Shown here: piece after piece, positions 11,483 through 48,449 of the stretch
Layout of the letters: each line of letters starts with the position of its first letter
Numbering within the stretch: position 1 is the first letter of the stretch
Source of the DNA: Candidatus Woesearchaeota archaeon
GTDB taxonomy: Archaea > Nanobdellota > Nanobdellia > Woesearchaeales > WAPJ01
NCBI GenBank assembly: GCA_047602765.1
Contig: JBLKOL010000004.1
Location: 1-48,449 of the forward strand
Length of the DNA: 48,449 nt
Direction of reading: 5' to 3'
Made by a program: the position numbers and the translations under genes
The notes under the pieces: generated by a model
Told to the model about the DNA's origin: nothing
The model's input: only the letters and a program-made list of their open reading frames with translations
Databases searched by the model: none

Positions 11483-12059
11483 AGGGTTCGGAGCGGTGCT
11501 CGTCGTCGTGTGGATCCTCTCAAGCATCCAGCTCGTGTTCGCACAGGTTCCGCATGTCATCTTCGCCTTCTGCTATATCGGCATCCTCATCGCAGGACTT
11601 GGATTCGTGTATGTTCGTCCGTCGCTCGTCTATGCGTACGTCTCGGTAGCGCTCTTAGCTCAGATACCGTTCTCAGTCGATCTCGTGCGCGTGTATCTGG
11701 GCCTCGAACAGTTCATCGGGCTCGTTATGTATGATCCCGCGTATCATACGCTTGCCGGGCGCATCGTCGATCTTGCGGTGCACCTGCTTGTGCTTCCGTT
11801 CGTCATTGTCGGCATGAGGTCGATCGGGGTTCCGACCTACCGTTCCTTCGTGAAGTGGTATCTCATCCTGCTCGTAGCCGTCATCGCGGTATCGGTTCCT
11901 TTGGAGAACAACTGTGTGCTCGTAGGATGCTTCGAACCCCTCGCATATGGGGATACGATCATAGGACACCTCGTCTACTTCTCGATCGTCGCACTCTTCG
12001 GTCCACTCGTCATAGCGCGCATCGTGATGAAGATACACTCCCGGCTGCGTCAGCGTTGA
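11463..12059 (+). CDS. Multi-pass membrane protein
   Basis: About 6 hydrophobic helices; overlaps the Nudix stop (translational coupling). Confidence 0.65.
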   Translation: MRILNAKGFGAVLVVVWILSSIQLVFAQVPHVIFAFCYIGILIAGLGFVYVRPSLVYAYVSVALLAQIPFSVDLVRVYLGLEQFIGLVMYDPAYHTLAGRIVDLAVHLLVLPFVIVGMRSIGVPTYRSFVKWYLILLVAVIAVSVPLENNCVLVGCFEPLAYGDTIIGHLVYFSIVALFGPLVIARIVMKIHSRLRQR

Positions 12060-12796
12060 CGTTTCGTGCTTCGCGCCGATGATCGCTTCGCAGATTGAGA
12101 TTTGGAGGGTTTCTTCGTAGGGGTTTTTCGGGTTGATTTCTTGGTGGTGGTCTTTGTGGGAGCCTTCCTCGTTGGTTTGCGTGCGGGCTTCGACACCTTC
12201 TTCGTGGTTTTAGGAGGTGTTTTTCGGGTTGTTTTCGTGGTGGGTTTCGCTGGTTTTTTCGCAGGCGTGCGCTTCTTCGGTTTCGAGCGCACAGGCTTCT
12301 CAGATAGAATGTGCGGTGTCGAAGGCTCATCGCTCTGCGATGCGGGTTTCGTCTTCGCCGTGCGGGTTGCTCCGAGGCTCGTGGTGTGCAGCATCCGTCC
12401 GTGGGGTGCATATCTTCGCTTGCTCGGAGGACTTCGCGTGTCCAAAGAGGGCTTTCCGTGTTCTACGGTGAGTTCGTCTCCGATGCTGATCCCGTGTTCT
12501 TTGATGAAGCCATGGTATGCTTCGAGTACGGTGCTCGAGCACGCCTTCGAATAGTAGAAGGTGAAAGGTCTGAAGCGTTCTTTGAGGTCGACGACGCGCA
12601 TCTGCTTGTCCATGAAGATGATGTCGATCGGATAGAACACGAAGACCATGTGGAATTTGAGCTTCTCCTCCTCGCCGAATTCGAAGAGCACGTCGTGAGG
12701 GCGGGAGAACATCAGGCCGCGGGCCTTCTCCCACTGCGTGCGTGCGAGTCGTGGCTGCGAGACAGGGTTCGATCCCTTGTAGACGGTGAGCTCCAT
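12050..12796 (-). CDS. DUF192 domain protein with Lys/Thr/Pro-rich H1-like C-terminal tail
   Basis: KARGLMF, HMVFVFYPIDIIF, VLE and ISIGDEL DUF192 motifs, then a KKPAKPTTK-type tail; promoter AAAAAGGATTATAAA upstream of ATG 12796. Confidence 0.8.
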   Translation of the reverse strand: MELTVYKGSNPVSQPRLARTQWEKARGLMFSRPHDVLFEFGEEEKLKFHMVFVFYPIDIIFMDKQMRVVDLKERFRPFTFYYSKACSSTVLEAYHGFIKEHGISIGDELTVEHGKPSLDTRSPPSKRRYAPHGRMLHTTSLGATRTAKTKPASQSDEPSTPHILSEKPVRSKPKKRTPAKKPAKPTTKTTRKTPPKTTKKVSKPARKPTRKAPTKTTTKKSTRKTPTKKPSKSQSAKRSSARSTKRQR

Positions 12797-12844
12797 AGCG
12801 GTCCAGGGCGGGGTGGGTTTATAATCCTTTTTCGTCATCCGCAT

Positions 12845-44322: not shown

Positions 44323-44562
44323 GTGGTACAAGCGATGATCGCTATCGGAGAGCGGACGAACCGCGTCCTCAACATCGTGAAGGCCAAGTACGGCCTTAAG
44401 GATAAGTCACAGGCGATCGAACTCGTCGTCTCTGACTACGAGGCGCAGTTCCTCGAGCGCGAACTCCGTCCCGAATTCGTCGAGAAGATCGAGCGGGTCG
44501 AGAAGGATGGGTTTCGCCATCAGAGCCTTGACGCCTTGAGAGACGAGACTGAGAATGCGTGA
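44323..44562 (+). CDS. Putative antitoxin (DUF2683-like, RHH-type)
   Basis: MVQAMI...NRVLNIVKAKYGLKDKSQAI...ELRPEF; overlaps the toxin start. Confidence 0.8.
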   Translation: MVQAMIAIGERTNRVLNIVKAKYGLKDKSQAIELVVSDYEAQFLERELRPEFVEKIERVEKDGFRHQSLDALRDETENA

Positions 44563-44830
44563 ATCCGCGTTCTCCGATCACCTTACCAAGCTCCTCGCGA
44601 AGCTCTCCAAGAAGGACCGAACGCGCTATCATGCGACGCTCAAGAAGATCGAGGAGATACTTACCTGTGAGAACATCGACCACTACAAGAATCTGCGTGC
44701 ACCGCTCCAACACCTCAAACGCGTCCATATCGACTCGAGCTTCGTTCTGACGTTCCGGTTCGATAAGAACGATGATACGGTCTATTTCTACGACCTCGAC
44801 CATCACGACCGCATCTACCGTGCACCGTAG
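44555..44830 (+). CDS. RelE/ParE/YafQ-family toxin
   Basis: KLSKKD, HYKNLRAPL, RVHIDSSFVLTF and DHHDRIY motifs; 91 aa, downstream of the antitoxin. Confidence 0.85.
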   Translation: MRESAFSDHLTKLLAKLSKKDRTRYHATLKKIEEILTCENIDHYKNLRAPLQHLKRVHIDSSFVLTFRFDKNDDTVYFYDLDHHDRIYRAP

Positions 44831-44931
44831 CGAGAGATCGTTCTCGCTTCGCTGACGCAGCTATCTTCGGTTTCGCTCAGCTGCTTCGGAAACATCTGCT
44901 CTTTATCCGCTCGCACAGCCGAGCTACGCTT

Positions 44932-44953
44932 CAGCGCTCAGGTTTGGGCGCTG
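44932..44953. terminator. GC-rich hairpin downstream of the toxin-antitoxin operon
   Basis: CAGCGCTCA-GGTT-TGGGCGCTG. Confidence 0.35.
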
Positions 44954-44978
44954 TATGGCTTCGAACGATCCGTACAGG

Positions 44979-45245
44979 GTCTCACTATCGTATTGAGATT
45001 GTCTCTGAGACGCCTCGGGACTGGATCGGGACCGTTCCATACGACAGAGACTGCATAGGTGAATAGATATATAAATAACTTAAGAATAAAAGGGGTTAAT
45101 GAGGGGTTTATCGTGGTCAAAACGAGTTCCATCGGAAATGAAGGGGTGGCGTGCGAACGTCTTGAGACTGTCTCAGAAACGTCTCACATTTCCGAAAGAT
45201 TCTTATATGAGTGTTCCACAGATGTTCCATGGAAGGGTTCGGGGA
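44979..45245. other. Candidate replication origin: ORB-like box, AT-rich unwinding element and TGAGAC repeats
   Basis: GTTCCATCGGAAATGAAGGGGT at 45126-45147 resembles the archaeal ORB (TTCCA.TGGAAA...GGGG). An AT-rich stretch lies at 45061-45090, with TGAGAC/GTCTCA clusters on both sides. Confidence 0.6.
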
Positions 45246-45672
45246 TGACGCTGATGCGTCACCATCAGACTTACTACGAGAAATAACCGAACTGAAGAGG
45301 AGCAACCAGAGGCTCGAAAGGGCCTTTGTTGCTCTCTCTCAGATCCTCGAGAACCAGCAGAGCATCCTCAATTCCATCGCCCCGCAGGGCGTTCAGACTC
45401 ACCCCCACGATACGTTGCGAAAAGAGTTCGAGCGGAAACTCAAGCGGGGAAGGGCTTCGATCGTCAAAGAGAAGATCCTCGCGCACCTCGAGCGCGCGGG
45501 AACCGTAGAGCTCTCAGAGCTCAAATTCCTCTTCGTCGACCAACTCTCATACACCTCCAAAGCGTCCTTCTACCGCTATGTTTCCGATCTCTCCAAGAGC
45601 GGTGCGATCGCCGAATCGGATGTGAACGGCCAAACCTACTTGAGCCTTGGTCGGATCGAGCGGACGCACTAG
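45229..45672 (+). CDS. Coiled-coil plus C-terminal winged-helix DNA-binding protein
   Basis: Heptad N-terminus (LREITELKRSNQRLE) and a C-terminal KILAHL...LSELK...SKASFYRYVSDL...G.I wHTH pattern. Confidence 0.65.
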   Translation: MEGFGDDADASPSDLLREITELKRSNQRLERAFVALSQILENQQSILNSIAPQGVQTHPHDTLRKEFERKLKRGRASIVKEKILAHLERAGTVELSELKFLFVDQLSYTSKASFYRYVSDLSKSGAIAESDVNGQTYLSLGRIERTH

Positions 45673-46343
45673 TGGTTCTTGAGGTAGCGTCCGATCTCTG
45701 CATCGATCGCTTCGTAGTCTTCGAAGAGCCGCTCCATGCGCCTGAACCGTGACGTATGGTGGTGGTTTCGTTGTCCTTTCTCCTCGTACTTGAGCAGTTT
45801 GTGCAGGCTCTCATGGTAGACGAGAAACGCCAAGATGCGCCTCGGAGCGCCTCTAAACACTTCTGAGACGCGGATCGTATCGTCGTGGTAGTTGTAGGTT
45901 GCGAGCGTGCGCCTCCCCTGCCCTTTGAAGATGAGGTTCGGAGCGTCAAGAGTTCCTTCGAAGTAGCGCGCGTTCACCTCGTCGAAGATCGATTTGAGCA
46001 GCGGATCATGCTCCTTATCCCCTCCGGTACGGTCGAGGCGTTTGATGAAGTTGTTGTAGAGGTCGATGTTGATCGTCGAGCGGTGATGATCGCCTTCGAG
46101 TTTGAGGAGCAGGTGTTGTAAGAGTCCGATGACGATCTCAGGACTCACGGTGCGCCATGAGTGGCTCAGCGAGAAGATGACGTTGCGTCCTCGTTTGCGC
46201 ACGTTCGCGTTGTAGGGTCTGAATCGTCGGCTGTAGGTGACGTCGAGGATGTAGTCTTTGCCGATCTCATCGTAGAGGAGCGAGTAGGCGAGCTGTGCGA
46301 TCTCGCGTTCGCGACCCATACCCGCTCCAAGCGCTTCGGGCAT
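45669..46343 (-). CDS. SprT/M48-like zinc metallopeptidase domain protein
   Basis: FDEVNARYF, LATY, LVYHESLH and HTSRFRRME motifs. Confidence 0.8.
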   Translation of the reverse strand: MPEALGAGMGREREIAQLAYSLLYDEIGKDYILDVTYSRRFRPYNANVRKRGRNVIFSLSHSWRTVSPEIVIGLLQHLLLKLEGDHHRSTINIDLYNNFIKRLDRTGGDKEHDPLLKSIFDEVNARYFEGTLDAPNLIFKGQGRRTLATYNYHDDTIRVSEVFRGAPRRILAFLVYHESLHKLLKYEEKGQRNHHHTSRFRRMERLFEDYEAIDAEIGRYLKNH

Positions 46344-47165: not shown

Positions 47166-48449
47166 TCACTCCTGCATCTCGTACCGTAGGATCGCGGCTA
47201 CCTTGCCGATCTGATCGAGCTGGTGTCCTTCGCGCGTCTCGGGACTTGTGAGCATGATCGTCGATCCGTACTGTTCTGCGAGAGCGCTGAGCTCTTCGAT
47301 GACTTCGTCCGGGGTTGATTCTGAGAGTACGAGTGTGTCGACGGCTCCCATCTCGAGTTTCGCCTTCACATCAGCGGTTCCGTACGCGACCATCCCTGGC
47401 TGGGTGTTGAGGTAGGTGAAGAATCGGTTGAGCATGTCTTTTTCAGCGGCGATCTCTTCTTCTGCGAGGAGGTCTTGGCTCTTGTCGACGAGCTCTTGCA
47501 GGCCGAACTCATCTGTGTACGAGAGGTCTTTGATGCCGATGATCTTCTGTTTGACTTGGTCGGTGATGTAGTTCCCGTCGACGAACTCGTACTTGGTGGG
47601 TCCTGGTCCTCCGACGATGATGCCTTTGAGTCCTTCGCGGTTGAGGAATTGTTCTTTGACGTACTCGGCGACTTTCTTGTAGTGGTCTTTGGCTGCTCCT
47701 TCGCGAAGCCGAGCGAACCGTTGTGCTGAGTTGTGGACGACGAGTCCTTGCGCGATGAAGCTCTCGCTCGTCGTCGAGATGTCGATGAGGCGTTCTGTTG
47801 TTCCTCGTTCGATCGTTGCGATGCGCACCGGCAGGTAGTCGAATCGCAGGATGGGTTCGAGGGCTCGTTTGACGCTCTCGCTGCTCTCCGAGTAGATGCT
47901 CCGCTCGAACGTGTCGATGCTCATGCGTCGCTCTGAGTTGAAGAAGTTCGAGACGCGAGGATACTCGGATACGCGTCCTCCTGCGGCTTCGATGATGCTC
48001 CGGACGGCTCGTCCTTCGAATGCGATCCGTCTCGAAAGGCTCTTCGTACGGCATTTGCTGATCTTCTCGAGGAGTTCGTGTTTGTCGCATGCGGTGAATC
48101 CGATCGTGTTCGAGAACGTTCGCAGCGAGGTTTGGTCGCTGATCTCGATCGTCCACCGAGTGTTCGAGCTGTACGGGTTCTTCCGGTTGTCGTATGATCG
48201 TCTTGATGCGACGATGCCGAGCCTGAGAAGCGCGGTTTGGATCTGTGCGCTGAGGATCTCGTTGTTGATCCCCAACCCGATGCGATTCGAACGTACGTAT
48301 CCTTCGGCGTCGAAGAATCCGCGTAGGTATCCTGCGAGCACTTCGTTTGAACTCGTGAGTACGAGTTCGGGGATTCGGCTTTCGAGTGCGGTGGTGATTT
48401 CTCGGAACCGGTCGCGTATGAGCCTGACGAGGGGTCGTGACGTTGCTCT
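47166..48449 (-). CDS. prf1: Peptide chain release factor aRF1, intein-containing (5' partial)
   Basis: SAQRFARLRE, IIVGGPGPTK, AYG, GAVDTL and ETREG...AAILRY motifs; the frame is open to the window edge. Confidence 0.92.
   Translation of the reverse strand, partial: RATSRPLVRLIRDRFREITTALESRIPELVLTSSNEVLAGYLRGFFDAEGYVRSNRIGLGINNEILSAQIQTALLRLGIVASRRSYDNRKNPYSSNTRWTIEISDQTSLRTFSNTIGFTACDKHELLEKISKCRTKSLSRRIAFEGRAVRSIIEAAGGRVSEYPRVSNFFNSERRMSIDTFERSIYSESSESVKRALEPILRFDYLPVRIATIERGTTERLIDISTTSESFIAQGLVVHNSAQRFARLREGAAKDHYKKVAEYVKEQFLNREGLKGIIVGGPGPTKYEFVDGNYITDQVKQKIIGIKDLSYTDEFGLQELVDKSQDLLAEEEIAAEKDMLNRFFTYLNTQPGMVAYGTADVKAKLEMGAVDTLVLSESTPDEVIEELSALAEQYGSTIMLTSPETREGHQLDQIGKVAAILRYEMQE
47730..48449 (-). 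mobile_element. Intein with LAGLIDADG homing endonuclease (partial) inside aRF1
   Basis: YLRGFFDAEG endonuclease block, F-block LIDISTTSESFIAQG and terminal VVHN followed by Ser(+1). Confidence 0.9.

Follow-up and report, generated by a model that had tools for sequence, protein, structure and literature searches.

At the origins of iteron plasmids (RepA, pi, and TrfA), phased repeats are accompanied by inverted copies near the promoter of the binder gene, which serve for autorepression; the Rep proteins contain two winged-helix domains and are themselves the initiators, and the iteron units are approximately 17–22 bp long. In Escherichia coli, datA and DARS are non-origin sites that carry initiator boxes together with sites for accessory proteins and modulate initiator activity; they belong to the bacterial DnaA system, and the accessory proteins, IHF and Fis, are global and not encoded alongside. 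Among plasmid partition proteins, ParR is a ribbon-helix-helix protein and TubR is a winged-helix protein. As described in the available sections of the following sources, R1 parC consists of two sets of five 11-bp iterons that flank a 39-bp core upstream of parR and serves as both operator and partition scaffold (PMC2241845), and characterized archaeal origins consist of inverted origin recognition boxes (ORBs) around an unwinding element (PMC12141716). Sulfolobus ucm is a single 11-bp element located where active origins unwind; it is bound by UBP, a basic protein of about 111 residues with a beta-hairpin saddle fold, which acts as a monomer and occupies more than 300 genomic sites (PMC12141716). 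Orc1 paralogues, namely Orc1-2, are known as transcription regulators (PMC9738581). Here, we analyzed a 48,449-nucleotide stretch from a Candidatus Woesearchaeota archaeon, hereafter called the window, in which TGAGAC/GTCTCA hexamers bracket an AT-rich stretch and an ORB next to a gene encoding a 147-residue protein with a predicted winged helix-turn-helix (wHTH) fold. The window is contig C14 of assembly G000, which consists of 50 contigs, is rated 69% complete, and has a GC content of 56.6%.

The TGAGAC/GTCTCA copies are the local version of a conserved array of 11-bp-spaced hexamers that brackets an ORB by the wHTH gene (Table 1). An earlier note, made from the letters alone, had listed five groups of the motif, and direct reading of the sequence located all of them: GTCTCA at 44979–44984 and at 45181–45186, TGAGAT-T-GTCTCT-GAGAC at 44994–45011, AGAGAC at 45046–45051, and the perfect TGAGAC-T-GTCTCA at 45163–45175. 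The two clusters flank the AT-rich stretch (45052–45091) and the ORB (45126–45146), as that note had described, and constitute a 28-nt direct repeat (44989–45016 and 45158–45185) whose copies are 82% identical and lie 169 bp apart. The palindromes are secondary, and the primary organization is that of 11-bp-phased direct repeats. On the left, the register runs through GTCTCA (44979), GTATTG (44990), GTCTCT (45001), GCCTCG (45012), GGATCG (45023), and GTTCCA (45034), and on the right through GGCGTG (45148), GTCTTG (45159), GTCTCA (45170), and GTCTCA (45181). The suggestion of "iteron-like" sites fits direct repeats at an exact 11-bp spacing, which is one helical turn and places all copies on the same face of the DNA. 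TGAGAT-T-GTCTCT is not a true palindrome; GTCTC-T-GAGAC at 45001–45011 is one, and it is the sole such palindrome in the genome. Because GTTCCA at 45034 follows the first left hexamer by exactly 5 × 11 bp, it is probably a degenerate first ORB. The ORB-like boxes in 44831–45250, at 45034, 45126, 45213, and 45224, are all on the + strand. Archaeal promoter geometry was used to read the promoter of the wHTH gene, and the distance of its TATA box from the start codon (Table 1) suggests that the mRNA is likely leaderless or near-leaderless. The right array ends 9–16 nt upstream of the B recognition element (BRE)/TATA in the window, and TTTAAATA/TTTATATA occupies the same promoter position in orthologue loci.

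Table 1. Elements of the hexamer array, the ORB, and the wHTH gene in the window
Feature	Coordinates	Strand	Remarks
Left iteron array	44979..45017	+	11-bp slots, of which GTATTG and GCCTCG are degenerate; register matches the family arrays
Opposite-orientation copies, TGAGAT (44994–44999) and TGAGAC (45006–45011)	44994..45011	-	Interleaved in the left array
GTTCCA, 5′ half of an ORB without G-string	45034..45039	+	Exactly 5 × 11 bp past the first left hexamer
AGAGAC, isolated opposite-strand copy (GTCTCT)	45046..45051	-	Off register; sequence read
AT-rich spacer, 40 bp at 20% GC (genome 56.6%)	45052..45091	.	Followed by two G-strings at 45091–45094 and 45102–45105
ORB GTTCCATCGGAAATGAAGGGG	45126..45146	+	Matches the ORB pattern at the module and beside orc1 in relatives
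Right iteron array	45148..45186	+	Begins 1 nt past the ORB G-string; GGCGTG slot degenerate
Perfect palindrome TGAGAC-T-GTCTCA	45163..45175	.	Unique in the genome
Likely BRE/TATA of the wHTH gene, GAAAGATTCTTATAT	45195..45208	+	Read from the sequence; TATA (TTATAT) 21 nt before ATG
ORB-like GTTCCATGGAAGGGTTCGGGG over the start codon	45224..45244	+	Uncertain, possibly chance; not at that position in the other displayed loci
wHTH gene, 147 residues	45229..45672	+	Start codon picked from aligned relatives

Conservation of this arrangement was examined in relatives, the closest proteins of the wHTH gene being 66–78% identical; the comparisons of locus DNA come from other relatives, of which those from the metagenome scan are 34–43% identical. 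Homologues of the 147-residue protein were present in 30 of 61 related genomes, and a 48-sequence profile, run on 301 genomes sampled from the phylum, matched 113, mostly with one copy each and with two unpublished genomes included in the tally; the profile matches listed were all from the same order as the host. The public loci, 65 in number, were titled as Woesearchaeota, Nanoarchaeota, or Nanobdellota metagenome-assembled genomes, and many as "uncultured Methanosarcinales". The title "uncultured Methanosarcinales archaeon" on many of the module-bearing records looks at odds with their gene content. The gene was placed in each locus by a hidden Markov model and identical genes were removed; of the short-type loci, 47 distinct ones had 280 nt or more of upstream sequence. 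Motif discovery upstream of wHTH orthologues, a check for which the earlier note had asked, was positive: at least three exact GTCTCA/TGAGAC hexamers were found in the 600 nt upstream of the gene in 38 of the 47 distinct loci, a phased GTCTYA-N5-GTCTYA pair likewise in 38, and an ORB within 300 nt in 37. The upstream regions held 244 hexamers in 27,414 nt (8.9/kb) versus 71 in 191,403 nt (0.37/kb) elsewhere in those loci. When the spacings of at most 40 nt between same-strand neighbors were compiled (n = 138), 83 were exactly 11, 22 were 22, and 8 were 33.

The internal layout of the modules was also shared. The repeat unit of the family is (A/T)GTCTCA followed by four or five A/T-rich bases, and the hexamers form two blocks on either side of the ORBs. 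Relative to the start codon, the blocks span −260 to −150 and −105 to −45, and the opposite-strand copies are concentrated beside the promoter. In 16 of the 38 cases measured at distances of at most 40 nt, the first downstream hexamer began exactly 1 nt past the ORB G-string, and in 26 of 36 cases measured under the same limit, the last upstream hexamer lay 9–12 nt before the YTCCA of the ORB. Both junction rules hold in the window, across one degenerate slot on the right side and five slots on the left side. The ORBs of the family, one to three per module, are mostly tandems in the same orientation. Spacer sequences common to both blocks within a locus were found in L009, L016, L017, and L097, as in the 28-nt repeat of the window. 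The hexamer, its phase, and the ORB junction were kept across families whose proteins are 25–45% identical.

The module was also rare within genomes. Exact GTCTCA-N5-GTCTCA gave 30 matches in 14 of the 61 related genomes versus five for a reversed control, and 26 of the 30 lay within approximately 1 kb of a homologue of the 147-residue protein, in agreement with the expected proximity of the motif to orthologues; the other four were on G010:C11, G052:C5, G030, and G043. In G061, a single contig of 910 kb, no 300-bp window other than the module reaches four hexamers (it has six, against a genome mean of 0.066), and the only phased pair of the genome lies in the module, and in G261, also a single contig, the module holds the local hexamers. 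There is essentially one module per Woesearchaeales genome. No published description of a repeat/ORB/wHTH module was found in the literature searched. The terms "ORB", "iteron", and "GC skew" occur 0 times in the main text of a 2026 preprint that covers 208 complete Nanobdellota genomes, and the available part of it reports a phylum-wide single-copy winged-helix marker, which perhaps is this family and perhaps is not (10.64898/2026.05.13.725050).

The density of the motif in the genome of the window was counted as the earlier note had proposed. GAGAC and GTCTC together occurred 2210 times in the 963,730-bp assembly (2.29/kb), which is close to the calculated composition expectation of about 2.1/kb, and the 208-bp span 44979–45186 contained seven, more than any other window of that length in the genome (uncorrected Poisson P = 7e-7). 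The runners-up were only two other 208-bp windows with five copies, on contigs C27 and C20, in which neither phasing nor palindromes were seen. GAGACNGTCTC, GTCTCNGAGAC, and TGAGACNGTCTCA occurred once each in the genome, all in the 208-bp span, and word and window counts over the whole assembly found no second copy of the repeat unit. As a control, the copies of every 5-mer pair were counted, and 263 of 18,357 windows of 208 bp (1.4%) had at least seven copies of some pair, mostly of common coding words; density alone is thus weak evidence, and the case rests on cross-genome conservation. Elsewhere in the genome, the strongest short-word cluster was a 208-bp window with 13 ACCCT/AGGGT copies on contig C40 (approximately 11597–11900), which may be a tandem repeat.

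The 147-residue protein matched no family in a Pfam search. Its AlphaFold2 model (mean predicted local distance difference test score, pLDDT, of 86.9) showed a long helix (residues 12–50), a low-confidence linker, and a helix at 62–90, followed in the C-terminal part (62–140) by helices at 95–105 and 111–124 and strands at 127–132 and 135–140, with pLDDT above 90. The predicted fold is a winged helix, that is, a helix-turn-helix followed by a beta-hairpin wing, and the predicted recognition helix reads SKASFYRY, the family form SK-A-(T/S)-FYRY being nearly invariant. Structure comparison with VIA-align returned a flat list of winged-helix domains with Z of 9–10.5 (best Z 10.5, root-mean-square deviation of 1.2 Å over 62 residues). 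Foldseek gave no match against the PDB at E of 0.001 or below, the best being of the HlyU/ArsR type (8.8e-3) and AspA standing at rank 25, and a profile search of PDB sequences gave only coiled-coil matches to residues 5–80 with E of at least 0.005. As judged from the model, these searches assign the protein to no winged-helix subfamily and speak neither for nor against kinship with Orc1-WH, Rep, or TubR. The earlier description as a "dimeric wHTH protein" holds for the winged helix in the model, while dimerization is suggested only by the predicted long N-terminal helix; a two-copy prediction scored 0.29 against a mark of 0.42, which makes no call either way.

The hexamer and the recognition helix changed together. 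In 63 loci with Ala in the recognition helix (SKA), 48 had at least three GTCTCA and 0 had at least three (G/T)TCCCA, and in 10 loci with Ser (SKS), the corresponding numbers were 2 and 8, respectively. In L017, which encodes a short-type protein, seven GTCCCA copies are arranged, as is typical, in two blocks that enclose a pair of normal ORBs. This split is suggestive of direct readout of the hexamer by the neighboring protein. The co-variation of protein and motif that the earlier note had proposed to test was found in part, as the hexamer becomes (G/T)TCCCA in the Ala-to-Ser clade, in one clade and one event. Long homologues of 210–275 residues with an extended coiled coil, an SKSSFYRL helix, and phased GTCCCA/TTCCCA arrays were also observed (L024, L025, L026, L028, and L029), and no ORB was recognized upstream of them with the pattern used.

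Iteron-like sites of the neighboring winged-helix protein are the best-supported reading of the hexamers, with autoregulation and Orc1-linked control as the most likely output. In its full form, which we consider moderately probable, the hexamers are a cooperative binding array for the wHTH protein around an Orc1-bound ORB, which autoregulates the gene and acts as a replication-control site other than the main origin. From the observed motif, its phasing, its register with the ORB, its conservation, its linkage to the gene, and the one hexamer switch that travels with the protein, we infer binding, cooperativity, autoregulation, occupancy by Orc1, and an effect on replication. The recognition helix of the neighboring protein would read each hexamer, and the protein would load cooperatively along both blocks through its N-terminal helix. 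Through the copies nearest the promoter, among them the inverted pair that closely precedes the BRE/TATA, the protein would repress or tune its own gene; the earlier proposal of binding sites for the neighboring protein with autoregulation thus gains plausibility from these copies, whereas the binding itself is deduced from the DNA. As the blocks begin 1 nt past the ORB G-string and run in register into GTTCCA, the wHTH protein may sit shoulder to shoulder with ORB-bound Orc1/Cdc6, and the two proteins on the module would constitute one Orc1-containing nucleoprotein complex. This complex could serve as a replication-control site or as a conditional secondary initiation site, rather than as the main origin.

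Several observations weigh against this interpretation. In 9 of the 47 loci, the array did not reach three hexamers, and L010, L039, and L042 showed no array in the available DNA. In the window, the slots GTATTG, GCCTCG, and GGCGTG are degenerate, and a distance of 110 bp separates the left block from the full ORB, which is not the case in most relatives. The density of the 5-mer pair is matched, as stated above, by some other pair in 263 of 18,357 windows. All ten Ser-type proteins fall into one clade (quick tree; Shimodaira–Hasegawa-like approximate likelihood-ratio test, SH-aLRT, 93), so that the co-variation is one evolutionary event and carries no statistical weight. The reader of the hexamers could be a different factor, for example, a second Orc1 paralogue. 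Finally, the AT-rich spacer and the fact that the only ORBs with G-strings in the 69%-complete assembly lie here would also fit a true origin.

A more specific proposal, which we regard as possible but tentative, is that the module is the one dedicated initiator-handling site of the Woesearchaeales chromosome apart from the orc1-linked origin. The wHTH protein would polymerize on the hexamers on either side of Orc1 at the ORB, and the initiator would in this way be sequestered, inactivated, or licensed. If true, the module would be an archaeal counterpart of the bacterial datA/DARS or would serve as a gated back-up origin, and the gene of its reader protein would be part of the same unit.

The alternative that survives best, although we find it doubtful, is a plain operator, in which the hexamers autoregulate the wHTH gene, part of a wHTH-DUF192 operon in most relatives, and the ORBs are promoter elements for co-regulation by Orc1, with no role in replication or segregation. 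The array ends a few nucleotides before the BRE/TATA, and in relatives the inverted pair abuts TTTAAATA; in G061 and G261, the module lies off the turning points of skew and gene orientation; and a regulatory role of Orc1 paralogues has precedent in the available part of the Orc1-2 study (PMC9738581). DUF192 neighbors the wHTH gene in 32 of 50 loci and is the first downstream gene on the same strand in 22 of them. However, the arrays reach approximately 200–260 bp upstream in two blocks, which is beyond the needs of an operator, and the fixed 1-nt junction between ORB and hexamer suggests a built complex. One clustered site per genome, moreover, resembles proteins dedicated to a single cis-acting site. 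In L012, L050, L056, and L064, the whole module, that is, the complete array with its ORBs, lies directly 3′ of the gene and is inverted, which indicates that the linkage between gene and site is kept where a promoter role is impossible.

A true origin, either secondary or the main one of an incompletely assembled genome, is unlikely in our assessment. Under this explanation, the ORBs would recruit Orc1, the AT-rich stretch would melt, and the wHTH protein would activate or repress this particular origin. In favor of it, the ORB is well formed, 40 bp have a GC content of 20% in a genome of 56.6%, and the ORB-plus-G-string sites of the module are the only ones of the assembly; the only TIGR02928 match in G000 is a 196-bit orc1/cdc6 paralogue on contig C46, beside which neither an ORB nor an AT-rich tract was seen. 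Archaeal origin-specific extra factors, WhiP and UBP, are described in the available sections of the origin literature (PMC12141716). On the other hand, the ORB-like boxes of the window are all on one strand, versus the inverted ORBs of canonical origins in the same source (PMC12141716), and orc1 is on another contig. Between neighboring ORBs of the family, 11 of 23 pairs are only 26–28 bp apart and lack an AT-rich spacer, leaving no room for an unwinding element. A spacer comparable to that of the window lies between two ORBs of L008, the other higher-GC member, and a secondary or conditional origin may be kept alive as an explanation by this shared feature.

The position of the module relative to the turning points of skew and gene orientation was examined in relatives only, because G000 is too fragmented for this test. 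The relatives carry an extra orc1 paralogue scoring approximately 420–435 bits, which is missing from the incomplete G000 assembly; Cdc6_C (PF09079) had no match in G000. This high-scoring orc1 never adjoined the module in seven of seven relatives, the distance being roughly 100–400 kb, and it had its own ORB-like boxes within a few hundred base pairs in at least G061, G062, G063, and G064. In G261 (1.13 Mb, one contig), the gene-orientation minimum was sharp and located at 438.8 kb, the GC-skew minimum was at 412 kb, and orc1, with ORBs and a long AT-rich tract upstream, was at 439.8 kb, whereas the module was at 640.7 kb, mid-replichore among co-oriented genes. In G061, the skew extremes were at 93 and 602 kb and orc1 was at 588 kb; the module, located at 869 kb (868.8 kb), coincided with neither extreme. 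The orc1 of G061 is near the skew maximum and that of G261 at the minimum, so that skew polarity is inconsistent between the genomes; as the gene-orientation profile of G061 is also noisy, the main weight rests on G261. Extremely AT-rich tracts of 500–600 bp with short tandem-like repeats and flanking ORBs were observed at 586900–587500 in G061 and at 439100–439700 in G261. The orc1-adjacent AT-rich regions of both genomes are likely the main origin, and no GTCTCA arrays were found at that of G061. The module with its "AT-rich/ORB core" is unlikely to be the main chromosome origin because orc1 is elsewhere, the ORBs have one orientation, and no turning point of skew or gene orientation coincides with it in relatives. 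Within the window itself, cumulative GC skew drops to a minimum near 7–8 kb, from where it climbs without interruption as far as the last position; this local turning point has no relation to the module, which lies at 45 kb.

Distinctly less probable is a chromosomal centromere, in which the wHTH protein would coat the phased repeats as a partition complex moved by a motor, as in ParR/parC or TubR/tubC. The build resembles R1 parC in having two sets of 11-bp direct repeats around a core, upstream of the gene of the binder and serving also as operator (PMC2241845, available part), TubR likewise binds split iteron sets covering part of its own promoter (PMC6009700, available part), and there is a single site per genome. 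In L039 (466–1287) and L042 (1742–2566), the gene immediately before wHTH-DUF192 encodes an ATPase of the ParA/Soj type (AAA_31, E 3e-47). However, these two near-identical loci were the only ones with a ParA-like neighbor among the 95 searched, and no GTCTCA array was found in the available DNA of either or upstream of parA in L042. The usual neighbor is DUF192 (32 of 50 loci) and not a nucleoside triphosphatase (NTPase), in G000, at 69% completeness, tblastn gave no match to this ParA and the AAA_31 search yielded no more than one partial, marginal match (27.3 bits), and ORBs such as those embedded here do not feature in known centromeres. The role in partitioning that the earlier note had offered thus found thin support. 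Chance or a non-functional repeat, be it a simple duplication, a miniature transposon bounded by terminal repeats, or what is left of restriction sites (GTCTC being recognized by a type IIS enzyme), is scarcely credible: some 5-mer pair does reach seven copies in 1.4% of 208-bp windows and the clusters are a 28-nt direct repeat, but the conservation of hexamer, phase, and ORB junction at 25–45% protein identity, the near-expected frequency of GAGAC/GTCTC, which is neither avoided nor spread, the uniqueness of the unit in the genome, and an Rfam search of 44700–45400 that matched no RNA family all argue against it.

The locus of the window is single-copy and chromosomal and lies among genes for a metallophosphoesterase, an inositol monophosphatase, and aRF1. 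On the upstream side, two open reading frames (ORFs) at 44323–44830 separate the metallophosphoesterase from the module. One encodes a DUF2683 protein (E 1.9e-7) and the other a weakly ParE-like protein (E 0.002, which does not reach the Pfam cut-off); they share 8 nt and form a toxin-antitoxin-like pair. The metallophosphoesterase neighbor is common to the window and seven other loci, and since it directly abuts the module in L009 and L037, the DUF2683/ParE-like pair looks inserted. The usual place of DUF192 is taken in the window by a convergent ORF of 224 residues (45669–46343, − strand) with an HExxH-like "YHESLH" and no Pfam family, and the DUF192 homologue of G000 (E 2.2e-18; 12050–12844, − strand), which at 263 residues is approximately twice the usual length, lies on the same contig, 32 kb from the wHTH gene. 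The aRF1 gene (47166–48449, − strand; eRF1 domains 2 and 3), which runs off the end of the window, has a LAGLIDADG_3 domain, which suggests an intein or a homing endonuclease insertion.

The module may bear on how archaea control Orc1/Cdc6 away from the origin, and no experimental studies of replication in very small DPANN archaea were found in the literature searched. The module offers a defined, testable handle, composed of 250 bp of DNA with a textbook ORB in register with a phased motif and a candidate reader of 147 residues encoded alongside, and the natural specificity switch (Ala/GTCTCA versus Ser/GTCCCA) predicts the outcome of a swap experiment. Motif-based predictors would call the ORB and the AT-rich stretch "the origin", whereas skew and gene orientation in the relatives place the main origin elsewhere.

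Among the known systems, Sulfolobus ucm/UBP is the closest in setting, being an accessory non-ORB motif at ORB-bearing replication DNA that is read by a small, dedicated non-Orc1 protein (PMC12141716, available part). The module differs from it in having multi-copy phased arrays, one locus per genome, and a winged-helix protein encoded alongside. Membership of the 147-residue protein in the UBP family was considered and rejected, as its predicted fold is helical with a wing, versus the beta-hairpin saddle (PMC12141716, available part). With a canonical oriC, the module shares an ORB of the same class as those beside orc1 in relatives and, in the window, an AT-rich stretch. Unlike such an origin, its ORBs are one-way, orc1 is not adjacent, and the site is off the switch of skew and gene orientation in G261 and G061; it also has a second, phased motif on its flanks, which the orc1-adjacent origin of G061 lacks.

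The closest system in build is parC/ParR, with two sets of 11-bp repeats around a short core, upstream of the gene of the binder (PMC2241845, available part). The parC core holds the promoter, whereas that of the module holds Orc1 boxes, and parC uses ParM on a plasmid, whereas the module is chromosomal, has no motor gene adjacent, and is partnered by DUF192. ParR is a ribbon-helix-helix protein, and the protein of the module is predicted to be a winged helix with a long N-terminal helix. Next closest is tubC/TubR, in which a small DNA-binding protein occupies a split set of short iterons over part of its own predicted promoter (PMC6009700, available part). The module has no adjacent gene for a TubZ-like GTPase, uses other iteron words and another spacing, and contains embedded ORBs, and the fold search showed nothing specific beyond a generic winged helix. 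As for membership in the partition systems, the two iteron sets upstream of the binder gene are present, and an NTPase in the operon is absent, the downstream gene in the window encoding the convergent HExxH protein.

With the Rep/iteron origins of plasmids, the module shares phased direct repeats and inverted copies near the promoter of the binder gene. The protein of the module has, by its model, one winged helix, and the module differs further in its ORBs for Orc1, its 11-bp units, and its single-copy chromosomal position among housekeeping genes. A plasmid Rep/iteron origin was accordingly rejected on the single winged helix and the single-copy chromosomal locus. The relation to datA/DARS is one of analogy only. 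Two features of a generic iteron array are present, as the repeats keep a fixed helical phase and are linked to a DNA-binding protein gene with which the motif changes, in one clade. Initiator boxes locked in register inside the phased array of a second protein were found in none of the systems compared and only in the module.

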